DNA from: Alphaproteobacteria bacterium | Lineage (GTDB): Bacteria; Pseudomonadota; Alphaproteobacteria; MPNO01 | DNA length: 64,000 bases | NCBI GenBank assembly: GCA_965117055.1 | Contig: OZ220750.1 | Coordinates: 3,501,440-3,565,439 of the forward strand | Reading direction: 5' to 3' | In this document: positions 9,592 through 47,518 of the stretch, in pieces | How the letters are laid out: each line of letters begins with the position of its first letter | How positions within the stretch are numbered: position 1 is the first letter of the stretch | Program-made: the position numbers and the translations under genes | The notes under the pieces: generated by a model | Told to the model about the DNA's origin: nothing | Seen by the model: the letters and a program-made list of their open reading frames with translations, nothing else | The model's database searches: none

Positions 9592-9592
9592 A

Positions 9593-31433: not shown

Positions 31434-31439
31434 GTCGAT

Positions 31440-32203: not shown

Positions 32204-32535
32204 GACGCGCCCCTGTCCGCCAGCTGCCGCGATGCCCAGGCCGCCGCGTGGGCGAGCACATGCCCGTGACAGGGCAGCGGATCGCACCAGCACGCGAGCC
32301 AGCATCCGTCCAGCACGGCGAGCTCCTCCAGCGAGACCTCGCCCGCGCGGATGCGGCGCCAGAGATCCGCACGGTAGCGCGCGATGGCCTGCTCGCGGTC
32401 CTGGCCCTTGCCGATCCTGAACGGGTTGCCCCACCGGGTGCGGCGGTCGATCAGCACGGTGTTGTCTACGACCTGCGCATATTCGAACTCCTCGCGCAGC
32501 CTGGGTTCGGTCCTCAGATTGACGACGGCGTCCAT
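32200..32535 (-). CDS. DUF4326 domain protein
   Basis: It is 111 aa with RWGNPFRIG and WLACWCDPLPCHGHVL motifs characteristic of DUF4326. Confidence 0.65.
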   Translation of the reverse strand: MDAVVNLRTEPRLREEFEYAQVVDNTVLIDRRTRWGNPFRIGKGQDREQAIARYRADLWRRIRAGEVSLEELAVLDGCWLACWCDPLPCHGHVLAHAAAWASRQLADRGAS

Positions 32536-33599
32536 GTTCTCCCTCCACTCCTCGGGTCGGCTTGCCCGACCCCTCGCTCTCCTCTTCCTCCCGCGCAGCG
32601 GAACAGCGGCGCGAAGCGGGCGCGGAGCGCCGCTGAGCCGAGCGCGACCAGGTCGTCGTTGAAGTCGTTGCCTGCGGGCACGACGACGGTGGCGGCGACG
32701 CCCGCCCGCGCGCAGCGCCGGGCGAGGCGTTCGGCCGCGAGCGCGCCGTCCTCGTCGTTGTCCCGCGCGATCACCAGGCGCGCGACGCCGGGCGGCGGCG
32801 CGAACGCGCCGAGGCTCCCGGCGGAGAGCGCGGCGGCGGCCGTGATCTCAGGCACGGCGGTGACCAGCGAGAGCACGGTCTCGATACCCTCGCCGACGAC
32901 GAGCGCAGCGTCGTCGGCGGGAACGCCGAAGCGCACCGCGAAGCCGTAGATGCGGCCGAGCGCCTTGCGCGGATCGGCGACGCCCGCCTTGGCGGGCCGG
33001 CGCGGATCGAGCCAGGTGCGCTGCACGCCGAAGATCCGGCCGCCGTCGCCGGTGACGGCGGCGACCAGCGCGGGAAACCGGCGCACGGTCGAGCCTTCGC
33101 GATAGCGAAGCTCGGGATGGAAGCGCAGCGCCGCGAAGCGGCAGCGCGACAGACCCCGCGCCTGGAGATAGCGTTCGGCATGGCTGCCGTCGACCGCGCG
33201 GCAGCGCCGCCAGAGGCGGCGCGCGGCCTCGGTCGCGTCGTAAGGCGGGTCCGGCGTCTTTGCCGGTGACGCCCCCGGAACGCAGTCCGGGGCAAGCGGC
33301 AAGGCGAGGAAGCGCCGCGCCTCGTCGAGCGCCGCGCGCAGCGTCGGCGCGTTGATGCGGTAGCGGATCAGGTCGAGCAGGTCGCCGTGCTCGCCGGTCG
33401 CTGCGTCGGTCCACTTTCCCGGCTTGCCGGAGCCGGAGAGTCGCACGAACAGCGAGCGACCGCGAGCGCCGCCGAGGTCGCCGCAGATCCAGTAGCGGCC
33501 GAGCCGGCGGCCGTTCGGCAGATAGCGCCGGCAGACGTCCTCGGCGCGCGCGGCGAGCGCCGCGGCGATGGCGGCGGCGGGAGACGGGCCGTGCTGCAT
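32514..33599 (-). CDS. Toprim-domain primase-like protein (DUF7146/Toprim)
   Basis: The N-terminus reads CRRYLPNGRRLGRYWICGDLGGARGRSLFVRLSGSGKPGKWTDAATGEHGDLLDLI. The C-terminal toprim region reads ALVVGEGIETVLSL ... ARDNDEDGA. A strong SD (GAAGGAGG) precedes the ATG at 33599. Confidence 0.7.
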   Translation of the reverse strand: MQHGPSPAAAIAAALAARAEDVCRRYLPNGRRLGRYWICGDLGGARGRSLFVRLSGSGKPGKWTDAATGEHGDLLDLIRYRINAPTLRAALDEARRFLALPLAPDCVPGASPAKTPDPPYDATEAARRLWRRCRAVDGSHAERYLQARGLSRCRFAALRFHPELRYREGSTVRRFPALVAAVTGDGGRIFGVQRTWLDPRRPAKAGVADPRKALGRIYGFAVRFGVPADDAALVVGEGIETVLSLVTAVPEITAAAALSAGSLGAFAPPPGVARLVIARDNDEDGALAAERLARRCARAGVAATVVVPAGNDFNDDLVALGSAALRARFAPLFRCAGGRGERGVGQADPRSGGRTWTPSSI

Positions 33600-33739
33600 A
33601 TGGGACCTCCTTCGAGCCATGCGGGACGCCCGATACCGGCCGGCCTCCGCCTCCTGGCGGAGCCAGGAAGCGAGCGCCCCGAGCGAAGCGCGGGCGCGAG
33701 GCCGGGCCGGCAGGCCCGAGGCCGGCGGCCATGCGCCGG

Positions 33740-34291
33740 TCAGGCGCTTGGCGGATCGGCAAGCCGGCCGACATCGATCCGGCCGGTCCAGGCGGCGGTC
33801 CGCGAAGCGGGATCGCCGTCGCGGAGCTGCCGGCGCAGCTCCATCCAGAGCCGCCCCAGCACGTTCTTGCCGCGGTAGCTGTCGCCGGCGGGCTTGGCGC
33901 CCCACCAGTCGTCGCGGGTCGAGACCTCGACGATCGGCCGGTCGCCGCTGCGCGCCAGCGCGGCGTCGATCGCGGCGGCATTGGCCTCGCGCTTCATGCG
34001 CAGCACCCAGCGCATCGCGTTCACGCGTTGCGCGTTCCAGTCCGGGTTCAAGCCTGCCGCCGTGCCGCGCCCGATGGCGGCTGCCTCGCGCGCCGTAGGC
34101 GCGCAGGCGATCCGGCGCTGCACGTCTGGGGCGGCGGCGAACTTGGCCGCCTGGTACAGGTGCTCGGACGTTGCAAACGTCCACGGGCCGGCGGCGATCG
34201 GCGCCGCCAGCGGGGCGAAGTTGCTGAACTCGCCCCACGCTTCGCGGGTGAAGCGAAACGGGCAGACCTCGTCGCGGTTGTAGACACGCAT
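33740..34291 (-). CDS. NADAR (YbiA-like) family protein
   Basis: GEFSNFA, TSEHLYQAAKF, DWWG and GKNVLGRLWMELR motifs match the YbiA/NADAR fold closely. Confidence 0.75.
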   Translation of the reverse strand: MRVYNRDEVCPFRFTREAWGEFSNFAPLAAPIAAGPWTFATSEHLYQAAKFAAAPDVQRRIACAPTAREAAAIGRGTAAGLNPDWNAQRVNAMRWVLRMKREANAAAIDAALARSGDRPIVEVSTRDDWWGAKPAGDSYRGKNVLGRLWMELRRQLRDGDPASRTAAWTGRIDVGRLADPPSA

Positions 34292-34381
34292 GCCGTCATC
34301 CTCCGTTGGCGGGCGGCGGGCTCCCTCGGCGCCGCCGCGATTCGACCGCGCGTAAGCGCACCTCCACTCCTGAGGGGCCGC

Positions 34382-34837
34382 CTACCGGCCGGTAGGCTCG
34401 TGGATGAGGATGGAGACCGCCTCGCAGGGCGCGAGGCGGGCGACCAGCAGGGAGCGGACGTCGGGCCAGGGCAGGCCGCCCAGGCCGCATCCGAGCGGCG
34501 GAACCGCGACGGAGCGGATGGTGCGGCGAGCGAGGATGCCGGCGAGATCGTCGAGGCCGGCGGCGATGTCCTCGATGCGGCTGCGGTCGCGCCAGTGGCG
34601 CTTGGTCGGGAAGTTGACGACGAAGCGCGGCAACCCGGCGCCGGCGTCGAAGACGAAGCAGCGCCCGGGCCGGACCTCCCGGCGCGCGCAGGCGTCCCGG
34701 TAGCCCTCGAAGTTGGCCGGGAAGCGGTGCCTGAACTGGAGGGCGAGGCCCTTGCCCATCACGCCGACGCAGTTGACGGGATTGACGAGGGCCTCGCAGC
34801 CGGAGGCGAAGAGGTCGCCCTGAACGAAACGGATCAT
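34382..34837 (-). CDS. Macro domain protein (ADP-ribose binding/processing)
   Basis: It starts MIRFVQGDLFASGCEALVNPVNCVGVMGKGLALQF..., with the Macro signature N..N..G.MG.G.A..F. It is 151 aa. Confidence 0.7.
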   Translation of the reverse strand: MIRFVQGDLFASGCEALVNPVNCVGVMGKGLALQFRHRFPANFEGYRDACARREVRPGRCFVFDAGAGLPRFVVNFPTKRHWRDRSRIEDIAAGLDDLAGILARRTIRSVAVPPLGCGLGGLPWPDVRSLLVARLAPCEAVSILIHEPTGR

Positions 34838-34887
34838 GACGCAGCTCCTGTCGAGAGAAGATCGAGACAAGACCGGCTCCGCCCGGC

Positions 34888-35472
34888 TCACGGGCGGCCG
34901 CCGGCGGGTGCGAGCGTCCGGAAGGTGGCCGAGAGGCGCGTCGCGGCCTGGCCGGCAGTGTCGGCGCGGTCGATGCCGTGCATCCACGCCGAGCGCGCGC
35001 GGCCCGCGAGGACGAGGAGCGAGCGGCGGGGGAGCACCGCCACCTCGTCGCCCGGCAGCCCGTCGCGGGCGTAGGGGCGCACCGAGCGCGGACGGAAGCG
35101 CATCGGCCAGTCGGCGGCGAGCGACAGGGAGGCCACCACGGGCCCGAAGTCCCGGTGGTCGGCGTGCATGCCGATGCCTTGGCCCGGTCGGTACTCGTTG
35201 ACGATGCACTGCACTGGAAGCGCCCCGCCGAAGTGTTCCCGCAGCCGGTCCGCCATCGCGTCAGCCCACCGCGGGAACGGCGTAGCCGGAACCGGGCGGC
35301 TGGCGCCCCGGTAGTCGTAGCGGTAGCCGTAGTGCTGCACGCGGCGACTGAGCTCGGTCATCCAGGGCGCCTGGGCGATGCGGAGCAGGATGCGCTCCTC
35401 CTCGGCCGGGGTGACGAAATCGGGGACGATGACGGCCCCCTGGGCGAAGACGCTCTCGGTGTCGCCGGTCAT
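34888..35472 (-). CDS. alkB: AlkB-like 2OG-Fe(II) dioxygenase (DNA/RNA dealkylation repair)
   Basis: It carries the HxD...H facial triad (MHADHRDF ... WMHGI) and R..S.T.R near the C-terminus. It is 194 aa. Confidence 0.8.
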   Translation of the reverse strand: MTGDTESVFAQGAVIVPDFVTPAEEERILLRIAQAPWMTELSRRVQHYGYRYDYRGASRPVPATPFPRWADAMADRLREHFGGALPVQCIVNEYRPGQGIGMHADHRDFGPVVASLSLAADWPMRFRPRSVRPYARDGLPGDEVAVLPRRSLLVLAGRARSAWMHGIDRADTAGQAATRLSATFRTLAPAGGRP

Positions 35473-35630
35473 GCTCTCTCTCCTCGCAAGTGCGAACGCC
35501 CCTTCCAGCGCTTCTCCCGAACTCCGGCGCCGGGATGGGGAAGAAAAGCTCCGGCCCGTCAGCAGAAAAAAGGGGACCGACGCCGAAGCGCCGGCCCCCG
35601 AGGCGGGAGGGAGGGACGATGACGGGCCGT

Positions 35631-36086
35631 TTAAAACGGGATTTCGTCATCCAGATCCGCGGGCGCCGAGGCCGGCACGGACCTGGTGTCGCCCGCCATG
35701 TCCGGGTCGGGCTGCATCTGCGAGCCGTTGCCGTTCGGCTTGTCGAGGAACTGCACCCGGCCGCCCGGGACCAGCAGGATCTCGGTCGAGAAGCGGTCGC
35801 CGTCCTCGCCGGGCTTCGACCAGCGCCGGGTCTGGAGCTTGCCGTCGACGTAGACCAGGCGGCCCTTGGTAGCGTGCTTCTCGAACATGTCGATCAGCCC
35901 GTCCTGGAAGGTGACGACCCGGTGCCACTCGGTCTTGTCGACCTTCTCGCCGGTCTGCCGGTTGATGTACGACTCGTCGGTCGCGATGCTCAGGTTGGCC
36001 ACGCGGCCGCCCGAGGTGAGGTGGTTGACGGTGACGTCGCCGCCGAGGCGGCCGATCAGCTGCACCTTGTTCAATCCGAATGCCAT
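35631..36086 (-). CDS. ssb: Single-stranded DNA-binding protein SSB
   Basis: It has an OB-fold N-terminus (LNKVQLIGRLGGD...TEWHRVVTF), a Gly-rich linker and the canonical acidic tail DLDDEIPF. Confidence 0.9.
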   Translation of the reverse strand: MAFGLNKVQLIGRLGGDVTVNHLTSGGRVANLSIATDESYINRQTGEKVDKTEWHRVVTFQDGLIDMFEKHATKGRLVYVDGKLQTRRWSKPGEDGDRFSTEILLVPGGRVQFLDKPNGNGSQMQPDPDMAGDTRSVPASAPADLDDEIPF

Positions 36087-36197
36087 GACGATTCCCCTTC
36101 ATGGACGAGTTGATGACGATGGGTTCCGAACGACCGGAGGCCGGGTCCTACTCCCCCGAACCCCCGACCGTTCAATCTCTTCAAGCCCTCCTCCCCT

Positions 36198-36449
36198 CTA
36201 TTCCGCCGGGGAGAGCGACGACGCCGGGTCCCAGGGTTCCGCCGGCGCCGCCTCGTGCAGCGCGTGCCCGAACGCCGGTTCCGGGTAGAGGCTCGCGAAG
36301 CCGTGTTCGGGATAGACCGCGCCCCGGTCGGGACAGCGGATGGCCCGCTCGTCCTCGGCGATCTCGCGGACGGTGCGGCGATCGACCCCGATTTCGGTCA
36401 GCAAATCGCTGCCAATCGGAAGGTCGAGGGATGTATCGGGACGAAACAT
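36198..36449 (-). CDS. Small hypothetical protein
   Basis: It is 83 aa with an AGGAGA SD upstream of the ATG. No motif was recognised. Confidence 0.3.
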   Translation of the reverse strand: MFRPDTSLDLPIGSDLLTEIGVDRRTVREIAEDERAIRCPDRGAVYPEHGFASLYPEPAFGHALHEAAPAEPWDPASSLSPAE

Positions 36450-36551
36450 GGGCGGGATCTCCTCTGGCCGTTGCCCTGCCCGGCATCGGCGCGGAGAAAC
36501 CACTCCCTCCGGCCTGCCGGACACTCGCCCGACAGGCGCTCTCCTCCTGCT

Positions 36552-37088
36552 CTACGGTGAAGGGACGGCGCGGCGGATCGCGGCCAGGCGCTCGCACACG
36601 GGCCGCAGCGTCATCGCTCCCAGGTTGAACACCGGGATGCCGCGGTCCTCGGCGATACGGATGCCCATGCCGGTGCCGCCCACCGCCTCGCCGCGTTCGC
36701 TCCACGCAACGACCGCATCGACCGGCCGGTCCAGCCCCTCCCCCAGCAGGATCGCGACGTTCCTCGCATGCAGCTTGCGGACGGCCGGCGAACACCGCTC
36801 CCACGCCGGATGCAGGGGCGCCGCGATCGCGATGCAGGCCGCCAGCTCAGCCGCCGACAGCACCCGGCAGTCCGGCCCGCCATGCCCGTTGTAGCCCCGC
36901 CACGGTAGCCAGATCGCCCGCTGATCCGCCGGCGCTCCCCTGGCAAACGCGCTGTCGGCCCCGTCCGCCCCGCCGCTCGACAGATGCCAGCCGGTCCGGG
37001 CCAGCCATCCCGCCATCACCGTCATGTCCGCCAACACGGCTGCCGGTGTCGCCCGCGCGCCGATACCTGCGTAGATCAATGTCGCCAT
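36552..37088 (-). CDS. SLOG/DprA-LOG-like Rossmann-fold protein
   Basis: It reads IYAGIGARATP...SGGADGADSAFARGA...IAEDRGIPVFNL, resembling DprA/LOG-type SLOG domains. Confidence 0.5.
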   Translation of the reverse strand: MATLIYAGIGARATPAAVLADMTVMAGWLARTGWHLSSGGADGADSAFARGAPADQRAIWLPWRGYNGHGGPDCRVLSAAELAACIAIAAPLHPAWERCSPAVRKLHARNVAILLGEGLDRPVDAVVAWSERGEAVGGTGMGIRIAEDRGIPVFNLGAMTLRPVCERLAAIRRAVPSP

Positions 37089-37212: not shown

Positions 37213-37620
37213 GTGCATCGCTACGGCATGGACGGGCGCGGATGGATCGGACGGCACGGGTTCTGGCCGCTGGCGCTGCTCTGGCTGCCGGCCGGGATCG
37301 TCGCGCAGGCGGCGGTGCGGTTCGGGCCGGAGGCGCTCGCCGAGGGCACGCTGGGTCCTTGGCTGGCGGCGATGGCGATGGAGGGGCTGTCGCTGGCGCC
37401 GCTCGTGCCCTGCGGCCTGCCGCTCGCGCTCGGCTGCCGCCGCCTTTGGCGGCTCGGCTACCGGCGCGCGGCCTGGATGGCGGGTTTCGGGCTGGGCATA
37501 ACGACAATCCCGGTGGCGGTGTTCGCGGGGCTGCTCGGACCGCTCGCCCTCACGGCCGGGGCCGTGGTTCTAGGCCTGCCGGTCTGGATGGCTTGGTGGT
37601 GGCTCGTGCGGAGGGGCTGA
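37213..37620 (+). CDS. Hypothetical small membrane protein
   Basis: It is 135 aa with three or four predicted TM helices. It is the only + strand ORF here, and GC-bias artefact cannot be excluded. Confidence 0.3.
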   Translation: MHRYGMDGRGWIGRHGFWPLALLWLPAGIVAQAAVRFGPEALAEGTLGPWLAAMAMEGLSLAPLVPCGLPLALGCRRLWRLGYRRAAWMAGFGLGITTIPVAVFAGLLGPLALTAGAVVLGLPVWMAWWWLVRRG

Positions 37621-37808
37621 GCGGAGACGGCGACCGGCCGGCTGCGCAGCAGGCGGCCGGACGGCACGGTGGTTCTGGGACCCCGGCAAGACGGTGCCGG
37701 GCCGGCAGCGCAGCTAGAGCGCGACCTTAGTGATGGGGCCGTCCTGCTCGACGGGCATGGAGGCAGCCGTCATTGCTCTTTTGGATTCGGAGCAAATGTG
37801 GGGGACCG

Positions 37809-38672
37809 TTATCGGCGCCGCTTCTTCCCCGGCCAGGGGAGGATGCCGTCCAGCTCGGCAAGGAGCGGGTCTTCGTCCTCTACCTCACGCCCTTCATGCT
37901 GTAGAGGAGGCACCTCTTCATCCTCGAACCAGAGCAGCGTGAGCGTCTGATCCCACGACTTTAGATATCGAGCTTCCTCCAAGACCGTGCCACCCCGGCG
38001 CCAATCGCTGAACCACACGTCGGCAGCTACTTCGTCCGGCCCTGTTTCCTTGCCGCCTGTACGTAGAGCGGCGGACAAGGTTTGTGGTGGAGTCTGCATT
38101 CGGGGCGGAATCCAGGCTCCCGCATCGCGCAGCGAATTCGACCGAGACGCGTATCGCACAACGCCCTTTTCGGAGAGAACGAAGGCGCATGGAGCATCCA
38201 TCACCGTCGCATAACGGGAACCCGTCGCGGTGGTCGATGCAATGAAACGACTCGCAAGCTCGTCGATTGCCATGAATCCGATCTGTTCGTCCCTTACCAA
38301 GGGCTCGAACAACTGCTTCGGCAGCAGCAACTCCGCCGCGAAAACGTCACAGAGAACCTCGTTCTTCGGGCGCCTGGCATAGCTCCACCATGGCATCGAG
38401 GAGTGGTCGGACGGCAGCCCCAAGACGATGTGTGCGATCTCGTGACAGGCGGTGAACCGCCTGCGCTCCTCGCTGTCCTTTTCGTTGACGCAGATAAAGT
38501 GCTTGCCCTTGTTCTCGAACGAGTAACCGGGCTCGTCGTCCGGTAGGTCCGGCTCGTGACGAATGACCCCGCCGATGTGCTTTGCATAAGCCCTGACGCA
38601 CGGTGGAAGTCCGGGAGATCCGGCTTCACGCACGAAGTTCCGAGCGCGGAGGACGACCGAGAATTCATCCAT
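37809..38672 (-). CDS. ImmA/IrrE-family (DUF955) metallopeptidase, CapP-like
   Basis: It carries the HEIAH zinc motif (TACHEIAHIVLG) and is 287 aa. It overlaps the XRE gene by 8 nt. Confidence 0.8.
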   Translation of the reverse strand: MDEFSVVLRARNFVREAGSPGLPPCVRAYAKHIGGVIRHEPDLPDDEPGYSFENKGKHFICVNEKDSEERRRFTACHEIAHIVLGLPSDHSSMPWWSYARRPKNEVLCDVFAAELLLPKQLFEPLVRDEQIGFMAIDELASRFIASTTATGSRYATVMDAPCAFVLSEKGVVRYASRSNSLRDAGAWIPPRMQTPPQTLSAALRTGGKETGPDEVAADVWFSDWRRGGTVLEEARYLKSWDQTLTLLWFEDEEVPPLQHEGREVEDEDPLLAELDGILPWPGKKRRR

Positions 38673-39057
38673 TGCCGTTCTCTTCCGACAGGATTCTGCG
38701 CACCCTGGCAAGCAGCTGCGCATAGTTGGGCCGGGCGCCGCCTCGGAACGCTGCGCCGGCTGCGGCCGCGAACTCGTCATAGGTCACGGTCGGATCGTTC
38801 AGCGCCTCGGCCACCAGGTCATCGGCGGTCTCGGGGTGGGCGGCAAGGAAGCGGAGCATTTCGGTCTCGCGTCGGTCGGCCTTGAGCGCGCGGATGAGCC
38901 TGACGAGCACATCCTCCGAGGGCGCCCCCTTTTCCCCCTGCTCGAGCCGATAGATATAGGCATGGTCCGTTTGAGCGAGTTGACCGAGCTCCCGCAGCGA
39001 CAGCCCCCGTCGCTCCCGCAGGAGCCGGAGTAAAAACCCCAGCCCGTTTTTTTTCAT
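38665..39057 (-). CDS. XRE-family helix-turn-helix repressor, ImmR/CapH-like
   Basis: The HTH reads LRLLRERRGLSLRELGQLAQTDHAYIYRLEQG. It is 130 aa and lies directly upstream of the ImmA gene. Confidence 0.8.
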   Translation of the reverse strand: MKKNGLGFLLRLLRERRGLSLRELGQLAQTDHAYIYRLEQGEKGAPSEDVLVRLIRALKADRRETEMLRFLAAHPETADDLVAEALNDPTVTYDEFAAAAGAAFRGGARPNYAQLLARVRRILSEENGNG

Positions 39058-39261
39058 GCCGGCCCCATTGACATCGGTCGTGTGACTCCTTATCTGTTGT
39101 CTGAGTGAGCAACAGTGCCCGATTTTCCGGTCACGGACTTGGATCGGCCGTTGAGAATCCTGGACACCATGTTGTCGTCATAGACAACCGGGTCGCGGAT
39201 GGCAATGGGCGAATGCAGAAGCCCACGGCTGAATTTCGGGCCAACCGAGAAAGGAAATGGC
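39058..39261 (+). promoter_or_regulatory. Divergent promoter/operator region between the XRE gene and the ubiquitin-like operon
   Basis: A 200-bp gap separates the two divergent transcription units. AT-richer stretches (TGACATCGGTCGTGTGACTCCTTATCTGTTGTCTGAGTGAGCAACAGTG) contain a short palindrome. Confidence 0.4.
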
Positions 39262-39783
39262 ATGACTGCCACCGAACTCGAAGTCTTTCTTCACCTCCCC
39301 GGCAAGCGCCCGACCGTGGTGTCTGCCGAACCGACCGAGACTCTGCGCGCCCTCTTGTCCCGGGTCGACGTCGGGAACGACGCCGCCCATGACATCCTGG
39401 TCTTCGTCGGCGAATGCGATCACGCGCTCACGGAAGGCGAGGACTCGCACAAGCCGGTCGATCTCGACCTTACCCTGGCAGATCTCGAACTCGACAAGCT
39501 CCAGCATGTCCACTGCAGCCGCTGCCCGGAAATCGACACCTTCGTCCACTTCTCCGGGAAGGAGTTGAATCGGAAGTTCTCGCCAGCGACCACGGTCGAA
39601 GCGGCGACGCAGTGGGCTCGCGACAATCTACGCCTGGATGGGGCGGCGGCGTCGGAGTTCGTTCTGCAGCTCTCCGGCGCGCAGGACAAGCCGCGTTCGA
39701 GTCAGCACTTGGGCGAGCTCGTCCAGGGCAGCGAGTGCAAGCTGTCGTTCGAACTCGTCAAGGAGATGACGCCGCAAGGCTAG
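39262..39783 (+). CDS. Tandem ubiquitin-like (beta-grasp x2, multiubiquitin/BilA-like) protein ending in C-terminal Gly
   Basis: It is 173 aa with two ~85-aa halves of beta-grasp-like hydrophobic patterning. The C-terminus reads ...KEMTPQG-stop. An AGGAAA SD is present. Confidence 0.6.
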   Translation: MTATELEVFLHLPGKRPTVVSAEPTETLRALLSRVDVGNDAAHDILVFVGECDHALTEGEDSHKPVDLDLTLADLELDKLQHVHCSRCPEIDTFVHFSGKELNRKFSPATTVEAATQWARDNLRLDGAAASEFVLQLSGAQDKPRSSQHLGELVQGSECKLSFELVKEMTPQG

Positions 39784-39787
39784 TCGC

Positions 39788-40261
39788 ATGAAGTCACCGT
39801 CCCAGCGCCTATTCGAAGGCGACCTTCAGTCCGCGGAGTTCCGCAGCGGCGTCCTCAAGGAACACTGGGGCGTCGCTGCACTGGACTGGCCGCGAGTGAT
39901 CCTTTGGATCCGTGCGGCACCCAGAGCGGGAGCGCCGGACAGATACCATGTGGCCCTCGATCTTGAGGGATATCGCGCCGCAGCGCCGACGGGCACTTTC
40001 TGGGATCCTTCGACCGAGGCAATGCTCGACACGGCAAAGCGCCCGAAAGGCAAGGCGAACAGTCGCTTCGCGAAGGTTTTCCGAACAGACTGGAAGAAGG
40101 GCCGCGCCTTTTATCATCCATATGATCGTGTCGCTGCGGGGAGCCACGGTGAGTGGCGAACGCAGCAGCCGCACCTCGTCTGGACACCGGATCACACCAT
40201 CGTCGACTACCTGGAAGAGATCCGTTCCCTCCTGAATTCGGATGACTACGTTGGCCTCTGA
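39788..40261 (+). CDS. E2/UBC-like protein (cysteine-free variant)
   Basis: It is 157 aa and sits between the ubiquitin-like gene and the JAB/E1 genes. It has an HPY tripeptide where E2s carry HPN, followed by AAGSHG. The sequence contains no Cys at all. Confidence 0.5.
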   Translation: MKSPSQRLFEGDLQSAEFRSGVLKEHWGVAALDWPRVILWIRAAPRAGAPDRYHVALDLEGYRAAAPTGTFWDPSTEAMLDTAKRPKGKANSRFAKVFRTDWKKGRAFYHPYDRVAAGSHGEWRTQQPHLVWTPDHTIVDYLEEIRSLLNSDDYVGL

Positions 40262-40748
40262 ACCCGTTCCCGAAGAACTCTCCCTGTCCGTCTGGCTGTG
40301 GTTCCGTCTGCTCGGCGATTTGAGACGCCGTGGCGCGGGACGGCGCGAGAGCGGGGCGTTTCTGCTCGGTCGCAGCGATGGTCCACGGGGCCGCATAACG
40401 ACCTACCTGTGCTACGACGATCTCGATCCCGACGCCCTCCACTCCGGCGCCGTCACCTTTCATGCGAAGGGATACGCCGCTCTCTGGCAATTCTGCCGGG
40501 AGAAGGACCTGGAGATCTTGGCCGACGTGCATACCCATCCGGGCCGCTGGGTCGGGCAAAGTCCGATTGATCGGCGAAACCCGATGGTGCCGATAGTCCA
40601 CCACACGGCGCTTATCGTGCCTTGCTACGGGCGGGCCTCGCGCTGGTCGCTCAAGGGCGTCGGCGTCTACGAGTATCTCGGCGACTTCAAGTGGGCGACG
40701 CACAACCGTGCCGGCAAGCCGAAACGGGTCTCCCTCACCCTCTGGTGA
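40242..40748 (+). CDS. JAB/JAMM (MPN+) metallo-isopeptidase
   Basis: An upstream Glu (RESGAFLLG) and the JAMM motif HTHPGRWVGQSPID (H-x-H-x7-S-xx-D) are present. It is 168 aa. Confidence 0.75.
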   Translation: MTTLASEPVPEELSLSVWLWFRLLGDLRRRGAGRRESGAFLLGRSDGPRGRITTYLCYDDLDPDALHSGAVTFHAKGYAALWQFCREKDLEILADVHTHPGRWVGQSPIDRRNPMVPIVHHTALIVPCYGRASRWSLKGVGVYEYLGDFKWATHNRAGKPKRVSLTLW

Positions 40749-40753
40749 TAGGC

Positions 40754-42157
40754 ATGACGGACGAAAGGCCCAATCTCTCCCGGATATCGAAGCTGTTTGC
40801 CGACAGAGATTCAATGCCGACCTGGGACGGGCTCAGGAAACGGCAGCAATTCGGGGTGACGCTCGTTTGCGGTGGGGACGTGGCCGGTTCGTACATGCTG
40901 CAACTCTGCGTGCTCACAGCCGCGAAGATTGCCACGCGGTGCTTTCCCGGTGCGGTGCGTGTCGTACTGCCTGCACCGGACGACAGAGCAGCCTTGTTGC
41001 TCTGGCCGGAACTGAAGGGCCGCACTGCCTTCGGTGCTTTGCTCCGCCAAATCGTGGGCGACCAGAATGTCGTTGCCGACCTGGGCGGTCTGTCCGTCAG
41101 CAACGCGCTATTGTTTGGCGACGCGCCCGAGACCGCTGGCGGGTTGCGCGTCACCTTCGACGGATGGGTCGCGATGACGGGCCCGGCATCGCAGTTGGCC
41201 CGGCTGCAAGAGCGACCATACTGTTCGCTGGCTGCCGTTCTGGCGGGGGCACTGGGCGTTTCGGAGCTGTTCCTGTCGTTTGCCGATATCTCGATCCAAG
41301 CAACACGACGGGCGGTAGGGCTGTCGCTCTGGCGACCTGATCTCGATCCCGCCGATACCGATGCAATCGGTCCAGTTGTCGGGTGGTTGCCGGCCAATCT
41401 CTGGGTGCTGGGCCTCGGACACCTGGGCAACGCCTACCTGTGGGCGCTGGGGACGCTGCCCTACGCGACGCCAGGGAAGGCCCGGCTCTTCCTGAACGAC
41501 TTTGACTCGATAGAAGACGAGAATATCGAAACGGGGCTGCTCTTCACCGGCGCGGACATAGATCGTACCAAGGCGCGGACCTGTGCCGCATGGCTGGAAC
41601 GGCGCGGATTTCAGACCCGTTTGCTCGAACGTCGATTCGACAAGCACCTTCGCTGTCAGCGCGATGAACCAAGGCTCGCGCTATGCGGATTCGATTCCAA
41701 CCCTCCACGTCGCGAGCTGGATGAGGTGGACTTCGACCGGGTCATTGAGAGCGGTCTTGGCGGTACGTCCAACAACTTCGACACCATGAGCATCCACGCA
41801 CTACCGAACCCCCGTTGCGTTGCTGAGCTCTGGCCGGATCTCCCCGACGAAGAAGAGAAGATGCGCGAGGCCCACCAGGAGAGTGTTGCGCAAGACAACG
41901 AAGCGTACGTTCGCTCTGGACTGGACGCGTGTGGCCGGTTTGAGTTCGCCGGAAAATCGATCGCCGTACCCTTTGTGGGAGCGGCCGCAGGCTGTCTTGT
42001 CGTCGCGGAGGCGGTCCGCTTGTTCCACGACGGCCCAGCCTGTACGGACATCAAGCTGCGCCTGGGAACATTCGAGAAGCATTGCTTTCCGGCAAGTCGC
42101 TGGTACAGCCCGGAGGATACCGCCGTTCACAGCTTCACGGAGGCGCTGCAGCTGTAG
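40754..42157 (+). CDS. E1-like ThiF/MoeB-family adenylyltransferase
   Basis: It is 467 aa with a Rossmann motif (VLGLGHLGNAYLWAL), ThiF-like Arg/Asp motifs (TGADIDRTKA) and several Cys candidates (LCGFD, ACGRFE). Confidence 0.8.
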   Translation: MTDERPNLSRISKLFADRDSMPTWDGLRKRQQFGVTLVCGGDVAGSYMLQLCVLTAAKIATRCFPGAVRVVLPAPDDRAALLLWPELKGRTAFGALLRQIVGDQNVVADLGGLSVSNALLFGDAPETAGGLRVTFDGWVAMTGPASQLARLQERPYCSLAAVLAGALGVSELFLSFADISIQATRRAVGLSLWRPDLDPADTDAIGPVVGWLPANLWVLGLGHLGNAYLWALGTLPYATPGKARLFLNDFDSIEDENIETGLLFTGADIDRTKARTCAAWLERRGFQTRLLERRFDKHLRCQRDEPRLALCGFDSNPPRRELDEVDFDRVIESGLGGTSNNFDTMSIHALPNPRCVAELWPDLPDEEEKMREAHQESVAQDNEAYVRSGLDACGRFEFAGKSIAVPFVGAAAGCLVVAEAVRLFHDGPACTDIKLRLGTFEKHCFPASRWYSPEDTAVHSFTEALQL

Positions 42158-42371
42158 AGCGCTGCTTTCGACAGGACGCTCGCGGACGTGGCGGATCTCG
42201 GATGGCCGCAGCGCGCGTTCGGCGTAAATCGGACAGTGGCAGGGCGACCGGAATCAAGGTGAAGGCCAGGGATGGTAGAGGCGTTTTCGGTTGTTTCGTA
42301 ACGTCACCAGTGCGGCACGGGTCCGTTGAAGTCGGATTGGTCAGGACGCAATGCGCACCGCAGAAATGGCT

Positions 42372-42641
42372 TCAGTGCCAGGCGCCGCCCTCCGGATCGT
42401 CGTCCTCGGCCTGCATGGAGGCGGCGACCATGGCTTGCCAGGCCTCGCGGTCGAGCCCGAGCCGGCGGTTCAGCTTGTCGCAGATGTCGAGAGCATTTTC
42501 GAGGTCGAGGGTGACGAGAGCCGTGGGGACATGGCCGGCCATGCCCTCGATGACGATGCGGATCTGCTGCACCTCGGTCTCGACGTCGTAGGCCGGCGCG
42601 AAACAGAAGTTCGGATTGTCCGGCAGGGTCTGCGCGGTCAT
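42372..42641 (-). CDS. Small hypothetical acidic protein downstream of the methylase-helicase
   Basis: It is 89 aa (MTAQTLPDNPNFCFAPAYDVETEVQQIRIVIEGMAGHVPTALVTLDLENALDICDKLNRRLGLD...) with a GGAGAA SD. Confidence 0.5.
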   Translation of the reverse strand: MTAQTLPDNPNFCFAPAYDVETEVQQIRIVIEGMAGHVPTALVTLDLENALDICDKLNRRLGLDREAWQAMVAASMQAEDDDPEGGAWH

Positions 42642-42796: not shown

Positions 42797-45700
42797 TCAG
42801 GCGGCGAGCGGCCAGCGGTCGAGGATCCGCTCCATGGCGCCGGCATTGGGCGCGAATATCCGGGCGCGGAACTGGACGATCTCCACCGTGCATCCCAGGC
42901 GCTTCAGCGCGTCCATGTCGGTGTCGGCCGGCCCCTCGATCTCGATGCGGTCGGCGCCCATCAGGCGGCGGCGCGCGAGCCGCCAGCCGTTGGCGAGCGC
43001 GAGCGCGTTGCCGCGTCCCATCACCGCCTCGAAGGCCTCCGCGCCGGTCATGGCGGGGCCGCCGCCGAGGCCGAAACTCTGGCGCACCGCCCGCACCTGC
43101 TCGGCGTCGAGCACGCGGCCGATGAGGGCGATGCCGTCGTCCGAGGTGAGCCGCCGGACCCGCATGTTCTCCTCCGGCAGGCGGTCCCAGACCGGCAGCA
43201 GCAGGCCGGTGGCGAGCCAGAAGCGCGAGTCCCGGTGCGACGGCAGGCCGGCGATCTCGGCGTCCCAGACGCGTCGCCATGCGGCCTCGTCGGCCCTGCG
43301 CCAGTTGGAGGCGTCGAGCTCGGCCCGCGCGATTGTCTCGGCCGTCGCTGGCCGGATCAGCCGGACCCGTTCGCGGACCCCGCCGTCGTCGAGCATGCGC
43401 GAGGTGGCCGGCAGGATGACGGCGGCGCGCTTGGAGCGGGCGTTCACGGCCAAGCGCGGCCTGCCGTCGGGGCCGGGGTCGCGTTCCCCGATCTCCAGCG
43501 CCGATTCCGCCGTGAGCGGCACCAGCCTGTCGCGGCGGACGATCTCGACCAGCTCGGTGGCCGCGCCGGTGCCGGGATGCTCGTAGAGCGTCTCCCGTCC
43601 GGCGACGATGAGAGAGTCCGCTGTGACCGTCTCGACCCCGACCTCGTAGCTGCCAGCCTCGATCGCCTGCTCGATGTTGGATGCGATACGTGCCTCCAGC
43701 TCGGCGAAGAGCTGGTTCTGCTCGGCGATGGGCAAGGCCAGCAGCCGGTTGAGGAACCGGGGCATGGGCGGCAGGTCCTCCTTGAGATTGCCCTCCCAGG
43801 TGAGCTTGAGGCCGGTGGCCTTCTCGAACCGCTCCAGGGTCCAGCCCTCGATGCTTCCCCGCCACAGCGCGCCGTAGAACTGGCGCAAGGCGGCTCTGGC
43901 GTAGACGCTCTCGAGGTTGTCGCTCTCGCGAAACAGCGCCGCGTCGCTGCCGCCCATGGCGGTCTGGCTGTCGCGCTGGCCCCGCGTGATTGCGCCGAGG
44001 CTATCCAGACGGCGCGCGATGGTGGCGATGAAGCGCCGCTCGCCCTTCACGTCGGTGGTCACGGGCCGGAACAGCGGCGCCGAGGCTTGGTGGGTCCGGT
44101 GGGTGCGGCCCAGCCCCTGGATCGCCTGGTCGGCGCGCCAGCCGGGCTCCAGCAGATAGTGGATGCGGCGTTCCGTGTTCCCGCAGGACAGGTCCGCGTG
44201 GTAGCTGCGCCCCGTGCCGCCGGCCATCGAGAACACCAGGATGCGCTTCTCGCCGTCCATGAACGAGGCGGTCTCGGCGAGGTTGGCGGAGGCCGGCCGC
44301 GAGCGCAGCGCCAGGCGTTCGCCCTTGGCGTCCGTGATCCTCAGCACCCGGCGCGACCGGCCCGTGACCTCCGCCACCGCCTCGTGCCCGAAATGCTGCA
44401 CGATCTGGTCGAGCGCGGTCGGCACCGGGGGCAATGCCGCGAGCTTCTCGATCAGTGCATCGCGCCGGTCCTCGGCCTCCTTGCAGATCACCGGGTTGCC
44501 GTCGCCATCCCTGGCGGGCCGGCTCAGCAGATTGCCGGCGTCGTCGGTGAAGGGTTCCTGCAACTGCACCGGGAAGGCGTGCATCAGGTAGGACAGGATC
44601 GCGTCCCGCGGCGTCAGGTCGATGTTGAGGTCGTCCCACTCGGATGCGGGAACGTCGGCGATCCGCCGTTCCATCAAGGCCTCGCCGGTGGAGACCAGCT
44701 GCACGACCGCCGACCGGCCGGCGGCGAGGTCGGCGTCGATCGCGCGGATGGTCGAGGGGCACTTCATGCCGGTCAGTAGATGGCCGAAGAACCTCTGTTT
44801 CGTCCCCTCGAACGCCGACAAGGCGGCCGCCTTGGCGTTCCTGTTCAGCGTGTCCTCGCCCTGGACGATGCCGGTCGCCTTCAGCGCCTCCTCGATGTTG
44901 GCGTGGATGACCTTGAAGGCGCCGGCATAGGCGTCGTAGATGCGCCGCTGCTCCGGGCTGAGCGGGTGCTCCAGGATGTCGACCTCGATCCCGTCATAAG
45001 CCAGCGCCCTCGCCTGGTAGAGCCCGAGGGCCTTCAGATCGCGGGCGACCACCTCCATCGCGGCGACGCCGCCGGCCTCCATGGCGACGACGAACTCGGT
45101 GCGCTTCTCGAACGGCGTCTCGCCGGCGGCCCACAAGCCGAGCCTGCCGGCATAGGCGAGGCCGGGAACGGTGGTGGCGCCGGTGGCGGACACATAGGCG
45201 ATGCGGGCGTCCGGCAGCGCGTTCTGGAGGCGCAGCCCCGCCCGGCCCTGCTGGGACGGCTTGGTCTCGCCGCGCTCCGACTTGGACCCGGCGGCGTTGG
45301 CCATGGCGTGCGCCTCGTCGAACACGATCACGCCCTCGAAGCCGTGGCGGTCCTCCTCGTCCAGCGAGCCGGCCAGCCATTCGACGATCTGCTCCAGCCG
45401 CGAGGGCCGGCCCTGGCGGGACGGCGAGCGCAGCGTGGCGTAGGTCGCGAACAGGATGCCTGCGTCGAGGGGGATCTCCATGCCCTGCCGGAAATTGCCG
45501 AGCGGGATGACGTCGCTCTCCAGCCCGCCGAGCGCGGTCCAGTCGCGGCGCGCGTCCTCCAGCAGCTTGTCGGACTGGGAGAGCCAGAGGGCACGTTTCC
45601 TCCCGCGCAGGCGGTTGTCGAGGATGATGGCGGCGACCTGCCTGCCCTTGCCGCAGCCGGTGCCGTCGCCCAGCATCCATCCCCGGCGGAAGCGCACCGG

Positions 45701-47296
45701 CTCCGACAGGGTCTCGCCTTCCTGGGTGACGAGGGAGGTATCGACCTCCTCCTCGTTTCCGTCATCGTCGAGCTTGCGGCGGTGGACGGTCTCCCACTGG
45801 GAGCCGATTCGGTATTCCGCCGCCAGGTGCCAGGAGTGCGCTTCGCCCGCGAGCACGACGCTCTCGAGCTGGGCGTCGGACAGCAGGCCGTCCGTGACGA
45901 TGCGCTCGGGCAGCATCGGCCTGTAGGCCGGCACGGGATGCGGCACGGCGGCCATGGCGGCGGACTGGACCAGCGGCGTCGGATGCTGGACGGCGCCCGG
46001 CACCCGCACCGCGCCCGGCCGCCATGGAGCGTAGGGGCCGGTGTCGCTGGTTGAGGAATCCGCTTCGTCGCCGGGCTCGACCGGGCCGCTCTCGACAGTG
46101 AGCTCGGAATCCGGCCCCCAGTCGTGGGACTGCCGCGTCTCGGGCGTGGATGCTGGCTTGGGGCCCCGGCGCTTCTCCGGCTTGGGCGTAACCGGCTTGC
46201 CGAACAGGTCGCGGGTGGGGCCGGACGGGGCAGGCGCGGGCGCGATCGGCTGCCTCTGCGGCACCTGCGCGATGACGGCATCGAGTAGCTCGGCGGCATC
46301 GGCGGCGCGTGCGGTGCCGTCCAGCTCGACGGCCGGTCCGTCGCCGCGCTCCAGCACGGTGAGGCGGGTGTCGAACCCGGTGCCGCGCCGTGCATAGGCG
46401 CGGCCGTCGATGGCCATGGTGAAGATGCAGCGGGCCGGGGGATCGAGGCGGCCGACGGCGTCGCCCAGGACGCAATGGGCCGAGGTGATCGTCACCAGCC
46501 GCCCGCCCGGCGGCAGCATCGAGGCGGCGGAGCGGACATGGCGCAGATCGGCATCGTGGCGGCTGCGGTCGACACCGGGCGTTGCCGAGAAGGGCGGGTT
46601 CATCAGCACGACAGTCGGCCGGACGTCGCGCAGCCGGTCGGCGATGGATTCGGCGTTGAAGGCGGTGACGACTGATCCGGGGAAGAGCTGCGTCAGCAAT
46701 CGGGCCCGGGTCTGGGCGTATTCGTTGAGATACAGCTCGCCGGTGGCGTCCGTGCCCAGCGCGCATTCCGCCATCACCGCCAGCATGCCGGTCCCGGCGG
46801 AGGGCTCCAGCACCACGTCGCCCGGCCGGATCGCGGCGGCCTGCAACGCGGCATAGGCGAGCGGCAGCGGGGTCGAGAACTGCTGGAGCCGGACCTGCTC
46901 CTCCGAGCGCCTGGTGTGGGAGGGCTCCAGCGCCGCGACCGCCTCCAGCATCGCCAGCATGCGGCGCGGCCCGTCCGTCCCGGCGCCGCAGGTACGGCGC
47001 ATGCCGCGGCCGTAGCGCTGCAGGAACAGCACGCAGGCGGCTTCGGCGGCCTCGTAGGCGTCCTTCCAGACCCAGCCGCCCCCGGTGTCGGACACACCGA
47101 ACGCCTCCGTCATGGCGTCCCGGAGGGTCGCGGCTTCGAGGGGCCGGCCGGCCTCCAGCACCGGCAGCAGGGCCCAGGCCGCAGCGAACAGGGCATCGCC
47201 CGGAGACGGGCGGGGTGGCGTTGCGGGCGGTTCGATTGCGTCGGTAGGAAGGGGCGGACGCGCGAGGGCGTCCGGCGCCGGGTTGGCGTCGAGCAT
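42797..47296 (-). CDS. N6-adenine DNA methyltransferase fused to an SNF2/strawberry-notch-like helicase (about 1500 aa)
   Basis: The N-terminal SAM-MTase has an FxGxG-like motif (LEPSAGTGMLA) and the catalytic MNPPFS motif. The central P-loop NTPase/helicase has GDGTGCGKGRQVAA and VIVFDEAHAM. The long C-terminus has MAGGTGRSYH. Confidence 0.85.
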   Translation of the reverse strand: MLDANPAPDALARPPLPTDAIEPPATPPRPSPGDALFAAAWALLPVLEAGRPLEAATLRDAMTEAFGVSDTGGGWVWKDAYEAAEAACVLFLQRYGRGMRRTCGAGTDGPRRMLAMLEAVAALEPSHTRRSEEQVRLQQFSTPLPLAYAALQAAAIRPGDVVLEPSAGTGMLAVMAECALGTDATGELYLNEYAQTRARLLTQLFPGSVVTAFNAESIADRLRDVRPTVVLMNPPFSATPGVDRSRHDADLRHVRSAASMLPPGGRLVTITSAHCVLGDAVGRLDPPARCIFTMAIDGRAYARRGTGFDTRLTVLERGDGPAVELDGTARAADAAELLDAVIAQVPQRQPIAPAPAPSGPTRDLFGKPVTPKPEKRRGPKPASTPETRQSHDWGPDSELTVESGPVEPGDEADSSTSDTGPYAPWRPGAVRVPGAVQHPTPLVQSAAMAAVPHPVPAYRPMLPERIVTDGLLSDAQLESVVLAGEAHSWHLAAEYRIGSQWETVHRRKLDDDGNEEEVDTSLVTQEGETLSEPVRFRRGWMLGDGTGCGKGRQVAAIILDNRLRGRKRALWLSQSDKLLEDARRDWTALGGLESDVIPLGNFRQGMEIPLDAGILFATYATLRSPSRQGRPSRLEQIVEWLAGSLDEEDRHGFEGVIVFDEAHAMANAAGSKSERGETKPSQQGRAGLRLQNALPDARIAYVSATGATTVPGLAYAGRLGLWAAGETPFEKRTEFVVAMEAGGVAAMEVVARDLKALGLYQARALAYDGIEVDILEHPLSPEQRRIYDAYAGAFKVIHANIEEALKATGIVQGEDTLNRNAKAAALSAFEGTKQRFFGHLLTGMKCPSTIRAIDADLAAGRSAVVQLVSTGEALMERRIADVPASEWDDLNIDLTPRDAILSYLMHAFPVQLQEPFTDDAGNLLSRPARDGDGNPVICKEAEDRRDALIEKLAALPPVPTALDQIVQHFGHEAVAEVTGRSRRVLRITDAKGERLALRSRPASANLAETASFMDGEKRILVFSMAGGTGRSYHADLSCGNTERRIHYLLEPGWRADQAIQGLGRTHRTHQASAPLFRPVTTDVKGERRFIATIARRLDSLGAITRGQRDSQTAMGGSDAALFRESDNLESVYARAALRQFYGALWRGSIEGWTLERFEKATGLKLTWEGNLKEDLPPMPRFLNRLLALPIAEQNQLFAELEARIASNIEQAIEAGSYEVGVETVTADSLIVAGRETLYEHPGTGAATELVEIVRRDRLVPLTAESALEIGERDPGPDGRPRLAVNARSKRAAVILPATSRMLDDGGVRERVRLIRPATAETIARAELDASNWRRADEAAWRRVWDAEIAGLPSHRDSRFWLATGLLLPVWDRLPEENMRVRRLTSDDGIALIGRVLDAEQVRAVRQSFGLGGGPAMTGAEAFEAVMGRGNALALANGWRLARRRLMGADRIEIEGPADTDMDALKRLGCTVEIVQFRARIFAPNAGAMERILDRWPLAA

Positions 47297-47518
47297 GGAC
47301 CGGTCTCCGTGCTGAAGGGCGGAAGCGGGCCGGCGGCGCGGCACGGAACCTCCCGCGCCTGCCCGCCGACCGCCCCCGGCCGGCTGACCGGACTCCCGCC
47401 GGCGCAACGCGCGCCCGGGAAACCATGCGCGGCCGCGGCCGGTGGATGCGTTCAGGAAGGTGTGGGGATGCCCAGAGGGGCGGCGTCTCTCAGGGCCGGC
47501 GCGGGATGTGCGGCGATG

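Follow-up and report, generated by a model that had tools for sequence, protein, structure and literature searches.

A Type I Bil operon whose E2-like protein lacks cysteine, carried on a conjugative element of an alphaproteobacterium

A 64,000-nucleotide stretch of DNA (hereafter the window) from a member of the Alphaproteobacteria (GTDB lineage Pseudomonadota; Alphaproteobacteria; MPNO01; GenBank assembly GCA_965117055.1, contig OZ220750.1, positions 3,501,440 to 3,565,439 of the forward strand) carries four consecutive genes for a ubiquitin-like protein (Ubl), an E2-like protein, a JAMM metallopeptidase and an E1 enzyme. Judged from its sequence, this operon is a Type I BilABCD (bacterial ISG15-like) system, and it is a fresh member of a known, experimentally validated family. 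What makes it peculiar is that the E2-like protein, BilB, lacks the catalytic cysteine beside an E1 enzyme, BilD, whose own cysteine is strictly conserved, an anomaly that extends across the family and of which we found no discussion in the literature searched. The reading that we consider probable is that of a Type I BilABCD operon under a CapH/CapP switch, carried as cargo on an F-type conjugative element, in which BilB acts as a non-covalent factor. The genes of this module are the following.

bilA, 39262-39783, plus strand: Ubl of 173 amino acids (aa) with two beta-grasp domains, ending ...EMTPQG before a TAG stop codon, with a free C-terminal Gly173
bilB, 39788-40261, plus strand: E2-like protein of 157 aa with a ubiquitin-conjugating (UBC) fold and zero cysteines, beginning 4 nucleotides (nt) past the bilA stop codon
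bilC, 40242-40748, plus strand: JAB/JAMM metallopeptidase of 168 aa, overlapping bilB by 20 nt
bilD, 40754-42157, plus strand: E1 of 467 aa, from an ATG 5 nt past the bilC stop codon
capH, 38665-39057, minus strand: XRE-family helix-turn-helix (HTH) repressor, divergent from bilA (Pfam HTH_31, 7.8e-16)
capP, 37809-38780 (maximal open reading frame, ORF), minus strand: M78/ImmA-IrrE zinc metallopeptidase with HEIAH at residues 113-117 (Pfam Peptidase_M78, 6.4e-14)

A previous annotation of the window, made from its letters and translated ORFs (the sequence-only reading), had proposed a set of Ubl, E2-like, JAMM and E1 genes at 39262-42157 on the plus strand, and all four are present there. The hallmarks that it had named, a tandem beta-grasp Ubl ending in TPQG, a JAB protein with an intact HxHx7SxxD motif and an E1 with a glycine motif, are likewise all seen. 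TPQG directly precedes the bilA stop codon, the JAMM site of BilC is complete (E36 and H97-T-H99-x7-S107-x2-D110), and BilD consists of an N-terminal BilD_N region that resembles an inactive adenylation domain, the adenylation motif G220-L-G-H-L-G225 and a catalytic Cys393 (D-A-C-G). For bilA we prefer the ATG at 39262, which has AGGAA 5 nt upstream, to another ATG at 39199, because the homologues begin at a methionine matching 39262. The TTG start at 40622 given for bilD by the ORF lister is unnecessary, and capP probably starts at Met37 (38672), overlapping the capH stop codon.

Several observations place the operon among the Bil systems. First, PADLOC profiles match all six proteins over nearly their full length, with E-values of 1.5e-39 (BilA), 9e-54 (BilB), 4.1e-57 (BilC), 2.5e-131 (BilD), 1.2e-13 (capH) and 5e-56 (capP, spanning profile positions 8-242 of 242), and the Bil profiles derive from the family that contains the system of Collimonas sp. 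OK412. These matches bear out the sequence-only proposal of a complete Bil-type operon. Second, the BilA-B-C-D gene order is kept in 66 related genome loci, a few of which are cut by contig ends, and the terminal glycine of BilA, at which the window protein ends (G173-stop), is invariant across homologues. Third, both predicted folds, the beta-grasp tandem of BilA and the UBC fold of BilB, were confirmed; an AlphaFold2 model of BilA, made with database homologues, aligns to di-ubiquitin and ISG15 across both domains. General libraries gave less. Pfam-A recognizes BilB as DUF7665 (5.7e-43) and has no family for BilA, and NCBIfam has none for BilA, BilB or BilC; the precomputed Pfam annotation of homologues in a large database lists BilA_UBL_2, BilB-like and BilD_N. 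Single-protein sequence searches of the PDB returned almost nothing (BilC matched 8tyx, DUB(BilC), weakly at E = 0.09, and the BilB N-terminus reached E = 2.3), and a BilB profile aligned only in its N-terminal half to 8tyz_C, an alignment that gives no residue match between Y112 and Cys138 of the Type II protein.

Three groups of such systems are distinguished in the literature: Type I Bil, with a two-domain Ubl (Millman 2022; Hor 2023/24), Type II Bil, formerly 6C/CEHH (structures 8tyx-8tz0), and Bub, formerly 6E/DUF6527, which has a serine protease, BubE (DUF6527), Ubl-E2 plus JAB-E1 or E2-E1 fusions and an E1 without a catalytic cysteine. We found no DUF6527/BubE gene in the window, where the operon is bordered by capH and an 89-aa ORF with no further gene in the island. 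Nor did we find Ubl-E2, JAB-E1 or E2-E1 fusions, since the four proteins are separate, and Cys393 of BilD is conserved. Of the profile checks suggested by the sequence-only reading, those with the Pfam models Multi_ubiq and Prok-E2 gave no match at E <= 0.1 among the window proteins and those with Prok-JAB and ThiF only sub-threshold ones, while the PADLOC Bil models were strong. The Type II systems (Ensifer aridi TW10; PDB 8tyx-8tz0) share a divergent CapH/CapP pair in 15% of their operons, but their E2 has a CEHH motif with a catalytic cysteine, which is absent from the cysteine-free window BilB, and sequence similarity to them, including that to their PDB entries, is only marginal; their Ubl usually has one beta-grasp domain and is often trimmed at its C-terminus, whereas the window BilA has two domains and a free glycine. 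The absence of BubE and of fusions, the retained E1 cysteine, the lack of Multi_ubiq and Prok-E2 matches and the marginal similarity to Type II together lead us to Type I Bil. Thus, the 6E/multiubiquitin assignment that the sequence-only reading had also entertained was rejected on the defining features examined and has next to no chance of being correct, even though Bub systems share a multi-domain Ubl, a cysteine-less E2-like protein with cysteine-free chemistry, a JAB, an E1 and frequent CapH/CapP control, because they place tyrosine on the E1 and serine on the E2, carry BubE and fused proteins, and do not fit an operon that keeps its E1 cysteine and matches the Bil models.

The window BilB departs from the Collimonas system at the very residue that is treated as catalytic in the E2. 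Cys113 of Collimonas BilB is the predicted E2 active site, and the C113A mutation abolishes defence; in a direct pairwise alignment, this residue pairs with Y112 of the window BilB, a protein with no cysteine at all. An E2 with a catalytic cysteine, as defined by Collimonas C113, is therefore missing from an operon whose gene set is otherwise complete. Having zero cysteines in its translation, BilB is unable to form a thioester, and the textbook relay from E1~Cys to E2~Cys is impossible here. The sequence-only reading, which had counted a full E2-like protein, was right about the gene and has to be amended as to its chemistry.

This absence is common among BilB proteins. Among the 120 best BilB homologues (60-94% identity) there is no conserved cysteine, and the shared motif reads VFRTDW..G.AFYHPYDR.AA..H..W; with the window protein included, position 112 is tyrosine in 119 of 121 aligned sequences and phenylalanine in the other 2. 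An exhaustive phmmer search of 1.84 billion cluster representatives yielded 354 BilB relatives. When 130 of these representatives were aligned with the window sequence, position 112 was occupied by C in 42, Y in 30, F in 20, W in 11, L in 8, V in 6, M in 5 and I in 4, so that about two thirds lack the cysteine. Around it, Y109, P111, D113, R114, H120, W123 and W132 are nearly invariant. The position-112 column is the sole one with cysteine in every Cys-type BilB, and the non-Cys BilBs share no conserved Cys, Ser, Thr or Lys that could compensate for it; we considered position 151 (Ser/Cys) as a compensating nucleophile, but many members have Gly, Ala or Asp there. A neighbour-joining tree of the representatives implies roughly 52 changes at position 112, with at least 19 switches between Cys and non-Cys, a count that is rough for so short a protein. 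An alignment of the BilB profile to UBE2D2 with hhalign covered only BilB 129-152 on UBE2D2 90-113 (the W132/helix segment). The 'YHPY' stretch recalls 'YHPN' of E2 enzymes, a likeness that we set aside, as the Collimonas alignment puts Y112 on C113.

The same variation is found in systems known to protect cells. Sequences for the five validated Bil systems were taken from Table S2 of Millman 2022, and their BilB motifs are LYIPC113DR in Collimonas, LYLACDR in Cupriavidus, FYHPYDR in Paraburkholderia caffeinilytica, and IYRAWQR in both Caulobacter and Thiomonas. Because three of these five founding systems lack the E2 cysteine (having Tyr, Trp and Trp), this residue is not truly family-defining. 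The Chambers preprint describes it as highly conserved in Types I and II. Literature searches on DUF7665, PF24702, PF27055 and a missing Bil E2 cysteine found no discussion of the matter.

The 66 related loci divide into 42 of a Tyr clade, 23 of a Cys clade and 1 of a Met type. The genome-scan pattern AFYHPYDR biases the Tyr share among these loci, and so our statements on the frequency of tyrosine use the independent homologue counts. Hosts of the Tyr clade are Alphaproteobacteria (Paracoccaceae, Silicimonas, Bradyrhizobium), many Acidobacteriota, a Smithellaceae and an Isosphaeraceae; those of the Cys clade are Burkholderiales and Xanthomonadales. The hallmark of the window's clade is FYHPYDR in BilB together with the BilA tail TPQG, and it includes the closest tested relative, the Type I BilABCD of P. 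caffeinilytica CF1 (construct Ub12 of Millman et al. 2022; our locus L068, on plasmid p1), which is 43-51% identical over the four proteins and is marked as defending E. coli in Table S2 of Millman 2022. Gene order, BilA TPQG, BilB FYHPYDR with tyrosine at the Cys113-equivalent position, and Cys63, GLGHLG and the catalytic cysteine of BilD are common to both systems. They differ in that the P. caffeinilytica BilB has two cysteines near its C-terminus whereas the window BilB has none, in that the upstream HTH and ImmA/IrrE pair of P. caffeinilytica is co-directional and not a close homologue of the window CapH/CapP, and in that its plasmid is typed as non-mobilizable whereas the window operon lies on a conjugative element.

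The Collimonas system (Millman 2022; Hor et al. 2023/2024), which attaches BilA to the central tail fibre of the phage, is more distant, with identities to the window of 32% for BilA, 35% for BilB and 41% for BilC. It shares the four genes, the two-domain Ubl with a terminal glycine, the JAMM site, and an E1 cysteine and adenylation motif, whose Collimonas residues G219 and C385 have equivalents in GLGHLG (220-225) and Cys393 of the window BilD. The difference lies in LYIPC113DR, with its essential cysteine, where the window has tyrosine. In addition, the CapH/CapP pair that is present in the window was found in none of 21 Cys-clade loci.

Outside position 112 of BilB, the parts needed for conjugation are kept in both clades. 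GLGHLG, the BilA C-terminal glycine and the JAMM residues are conserved across clades, with E36, H97, H99, S107 and D110 of BilC found in at least 92% of 67 sequences. Cys393 of BilD is the only cysteine universally conserved across clades, and the E1 cysteine is also present in individually retrieved Trp-, Leu-, Phe- and Val-type operons. The Tyr clade itself contains Phe variants, in L082 (88% identity, on the same element backbone) and L083 (66%), with the other catalytic residues intact in both.

Several further observations on these proteins deserve mention. Proteins P0122, P0125, P0132, P0171, P0177, P0211, P0219, P0247 and P0264 are predicted BilA-BilB fusions of 300-355 aa, of both Cys and non-Cys types, in which the E2-like domain directly follows the conserved Ubl glycine, an arrangement that recalls the JAB-cleaved BubAB. 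In L081, a freshwater metagenome contig, a Trp-type BilB-BilC-BilD set has no BilA called immediately upstream and has an M78 peptidase gene near it, and in L083 a ThiF and Prok-E2_D pair (9323-10827) lies about 1 kb downstream of the Phe-type Bil operon. In BilA, residues 80-88, 149 and 159 form a His/Cys cluster (HVHCSRC...H...C) in the second beta-grasp domain; both clades keep His84, Cys88 and Cys159 without exception, the close clade nearly always has His80, His82 and His149 as well, and these residues may form a disulfide or bind a metal.

We propose the following course of events for the window system. BilD would adenylate Gly173 of BilA and then hold it as a thioester on Cys393, as the invariant motifs and the Collimonas system suggest. 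BilB would dock on BilD~BilA in the manner of a UEV protein, non-covalently, and position the acceptor, such that a target lysine presented by BilB attacks the BilD~BilA thioester by direct aminolysis, with the invariant Asp113-Arg114...His120 cluster of BilB performing chemistry or positioning. BilC would then remove or edit conjugates; since BilA already ends in a free glycine and requires no C-terminal maturation, editing or recycling is its more likely task. By analogy with Collimonas, phage structural proteins are the likely targets of BilA. We favour a non-covalent BilB because position 112 is hydrophobic or aromatic in most lineages, because Trp-type systems defend, and because the Phe variants look healthy.

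Ubl conjugation that dispenses with a thioester on the E2 is known from UEV proteins (Mms2/Uev1a, Tsg101) and from the E2-independent, E1-like conjugation of archaeal SAMP/UbaA and Thermus TtuB/TtuC. There is no sequence relationship between any of these and the window BilB, and the analogy is functional only; moreover, Mms2 works together with a cysteine-bearing E2 partner, whereas the window operon has none.

A number of points weigh against a non-covalent BilB. The loss of defence in Collimonas C113A indicates that some members need the cysteine, and direct transfer from E1 to lysine by way of a cysteine-less UBC fold lacks precedent in Bil. Tyrosine is near-invariant in the close clade (119/121), and the Ubl~Tyr oxyester on the Bub E1 is a precedent for a covalent BilB intermediate. 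Furthermore, the placement of Y112 at the canonical E2 cysteine position depends on alignment with the Collimonas sequence, and the mechanism given above is read from sequence, with the promoter and operators described below read from conservation.

The Bub precedent and the near-invariant tyrosine make a tyrosine oxyester relay the main rival to a non-covalent BilB. From its thioester on BilD Cys393, BilA would be handed to the Tyr112 hydroxyl of BilB and then to the target lysine, which would make BilB a true, cysteine-free E2. The tyrosine stands exactly at the Collimonas Cys113 position and has invariant neighbours, D113, R114 and H120, that could activate its hydroxyl, and Bub forms a Ubl~Ser oxyester on its E2 in addition to the Ubl~Tyr oxyester on its E1. 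However, the same column holds Phe, Trp, Leu, Val, Met or Ile in many relatives, tryptophan in two systems shown to defend, and phenylalanine in variants (88% and 66% identity) that sit in otherwise intact operons; a passage from thioester to oxyester to amide would also be unprecedented in Bil. On balance we regard this relay as unlikely, though it deserves to be taken seriously.

Either route dispenses with a thioester on the E2. That Tyr-clade Type I Bil systems conjugate in this way, whether through a non-covalent, UEV-like BilB or through a Tyr112 aryl oxyester, has in our estimation a somewhat better than even chance of being true.

The carrier cysteine might instead have moved into the E1, with Cys63 in the N-terminal domain of BilD (approximately 40940-40942; motif R-C-F-P-G) taking over the thioester role of the E2 in the Tyr clade. 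Every one of 44 Tyr-clade BilDs has cysteine at residue 63, as does the Trp-type Caulobacter system, and this residue is never cysteine in 25 Cys-clade loci, Collimonas, Cupriavidus, L079 and L080. However, it is Ala, Thr or Val in the other non-Cys types (L073 W, L075 L, L076 F, L077 V, L081 W, Thiomonas W), and the correlation therefore goes back to one or two evolutionary events; moreover, residue 63 lies in the presumed inactive adenylation domain. Cys63 was rejected as a general replacement carrier because it is clade-specific, and even within the Tyr clade we consider such a role very improbable.

Finally, BilB could be a dead pseudo-enzyme in a module that is decaying or non-functional. 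A cysteine essential in Collimonas is indeed missing, and some relatives are damaged in bilD or in the regulators: in L003 the E1 catalytic cysteine is replaced by tryptophan, in L021 bilD is disrupted, and in L082 capH is lost and capP is truncated beside a HicB-like gene, although some of this damage may consist of assembly errors. All ORFs of the window module, however, are intact and translationally coupled. Comparison with four relatives gave ratios of nonsynonymous to synonymous substitution rates of 0.09-0.34 across the six genes (0.11-0.23 for bilB, 0.14-0.24 for capP and 0.09-0.15 for capH), and all six are under purifying selection. Because the clade in addition spans several phyla with invariant motifs and has a member for which defence has been shown, we give decay hardly any credence.

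The sequence-only reading had placed the operon under a CapH/CapP-like switch, and the PADLOC matches noted above, which are full-length, agree with this: CapH, with its XRE-type HTH, and CapP, an M78 peptidase with HEIAH, are adjacent to each other and divergent from bilA. The 204-bp spacer between capH and bilA (39058-39261) contains a promoter-like element and two conserved palindromes.

Putative bil promoter, 39068-39096, plus strand: TTGACA (39068-39073), a 17-nt spacer and TATCTG (39091-39096), read from the sequence
Palindrome O1, 39094-39115, no strand: CTGTTGTCTGAGTGAGCAACAG, overlapping the -10 element
Palindrome O2, 39171-39188, no strand: GTTGTCGTCATAGACAAC, about 75 nt downstream of O1

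A scan of 37.5-42.9 kb with a sigma-70 consensus scanner reported no promoter, and terminator matches there were at chance level; TTGACA-17-TATCTG was missed because its -10 element is imperfect. Related loci repeat the succession of TTGACA and the first palindrome, and approximately 22 loci linked to CapH/CapP, from Alphaproteobacteria, Acidobacteriota and other groups, have two copies of the consensus GTTGTC-N6-GACAAC at the same place and spacing. O1 and O2 are therefore likely to be CapH operators, a putative role that we read from this conservation. Of 37 Tyr-clade loci, 26 have a divergent upstream CapH/CapP pair homologous to that of the window, and none of 21 Cys-clade loci does; a divergent pair has been reported in 15% of Type II Bil operons.

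CapH/CapP pairs of CBASS and other defence operons (Lau et al. 2022) consist of the same HTH repressor and M78 peptidase, divergent from the operon, and CapP has been reported to be activated by single-stranded DNA (ssDNA) and to cleave CapH. In the window the cargo is a Type I Bil operon, and the operator, GTTGTC-N6-GACAAC in two copies, is deduced from the Tyr clade only. CapH would keep bilABCD off by binding two operators, one overlapping the bil promoter and one beyond it, and ssDNA arising from phage infection or DNA damage would activate CapP and lead to cleavage of CapH, as is known for the CapH/CapP family. Conjugative entry could plausibly activate CapP as well. A different neighbour is seen in L070, L071 and L072 (Aminobacter, Rhizobium and Xanthomonas plasmids), where a co-oriented large gene with a UvrD-helicase domain lies directly upstream of a Cys-type Bil operon instead of CapH/CapP.

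The module forms a cargo island within a conjugative element, whose main features are listed here.

Cargo island capP-capH-bilABCD, 37621-42371, no strand: between a backbone ORF (37213-37620) and an 89-aa ORF (42372-42641, minus strand)
Conjugation genes, 6951-29309, plus strand: F-type type IV secretion system (T4SS) TraE, K, C, U, N, H and G, a TrwB-type type IV coupling protein and a TrwC relaxase (Pfam)
Backbone block, 30507-37088, minus strand: YAcAr/SLOG protein, Toprim/DUF7146, NADAR, Macro, 2-oxoglutarate-Fe(II) (2OG-Fe(II)) oxygenase, single-stranded DNA-binding protein (SSB) and two other ORFs (Pfam)
Strawberry-notch-like helicase, 42797-47407, minus strand: 1536 aa, AAA_34 plus Helicase_C_4, to the right of the island and syntenic in L006, L003, L039 and L082

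The guanine-cytosine (GC) content is 62% at 38-42 kb against approximately 70-75% in the flanks, and with the T4SS, coupling protein and relaxase genes at 6.9-29.3 kb this substantiates the lower-GC cargo island on a conjugative element seen by the sequence-only reading. The 'leading region' label, however, is a tentative one drawn from gene content (SSB, Toprim, Macro/NADAR and the strawberry-notch-like helicase). Further minus-strand backbone genes encode SRAP, RadC, a ParB_N protein and DUF2201 (Pfam). No integrase, attachment sites, oriT or replicon were located in the window, and the element is an integrative and conjugative element (ICE) or a plasmid. A megablast search of 33-48 kb against plasmids returned only backbone fragments of 70-75% identity and no empty site. 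The same backbone and module are found in L006, an alphaproteobacterial metagenome-assembled genome, at 80-85% similarity for both, with breaks in synteny at 37606/37810 and 42067/42797; L082 has the same arrangement, and the 30507-37088 block flanks the Bil module in both. Because these loci share both module and backbone, the module appears to be inherited with the element family. Carriage of Bil by conjugative DNA is common: among plasmids with a BilD homologue, 23 of 38 are typed as conjugative.

Such a setting raises the question of whether the module serves the conjugative element rather than acting chiefly against phages. It might, for example, modify host factors or the proteins of competing plasmids or ICEs immediately after transfer, with zygotic induction and conjugation ssDNA as the switch. 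Its presence in the same backbone slot of related elements, along with which it has diverged at 80-85%, the proportion of conjugative plasmids and the ssDNA response described for CapP all fit this idea. On the other hand, same-clade relatives reside on chromosomes and in varied contexts, and anti-phage activity is the only activity demonstrated for the family. We therefore think a role of this kind quite unlikely, though less so than a carrier role for Cys63, and continue to favour defence by a Type I Bil system with a non-covalent BilB.

Other genes of the window lie outside this argument. At 33740-35472 (minus strand), NADAR, Macro-domain and 2OG-Fe(II) oxygenase genes stand in a row beside SSB, are conserved in L006 and look like a set for reversal of ADP-ribosylation or alkylation. 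The 89-aa ORF at 42372-42641 (minus strand), between bilD and the strawberry-notch-like helicase gene, has no Pfam match, and an ORF of equal size occupies this place in L082. Toward the right end of the window, a gene for a protein resembling 3'-phosphoadenosine-5'-phosphosulfate reductase (59833-60843, minus strand) precedes a DndB gene (61901-62989; Pfam 4.9e-118), and GC content falls to 56-62%; the segment 59833-64000 may be a second cargo island, for DNA phosphorothioation or a related function, or the end of the element. At the left end, directly before the T4SS genes, is an ORF of 1640 aa (14-4936) with five fibronectin type III repeats and Calx-beta and cadherin-like domains.

Taken as a locus, the window adds one more Bil operon with a known DNA-damage switch on a mobile element, which helps annotation and is unsurprising, although the conserved operator pair provides a defined DNA target for the study of CapH. 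The greater interest lies in BilB. The presumed catalytic residue of the Bil E2 is missing here, in most aligned BilB representatives and in three of five phage-protective systems, which poses the question of how a UBC-fold protein without a nucleophilic cysteine supports Ubl conjugation. The answer bears on the origin of E2 enzymes and of UEV-type pseudo-E2s. If conjugation indeed proceeds without an E2 thioester, by either route, then the published E1~Cys to E2~Cys model of Bil would be a special case, and a minimal ligase made of an E1 and a pseudo-E2 would exist in bacteria.

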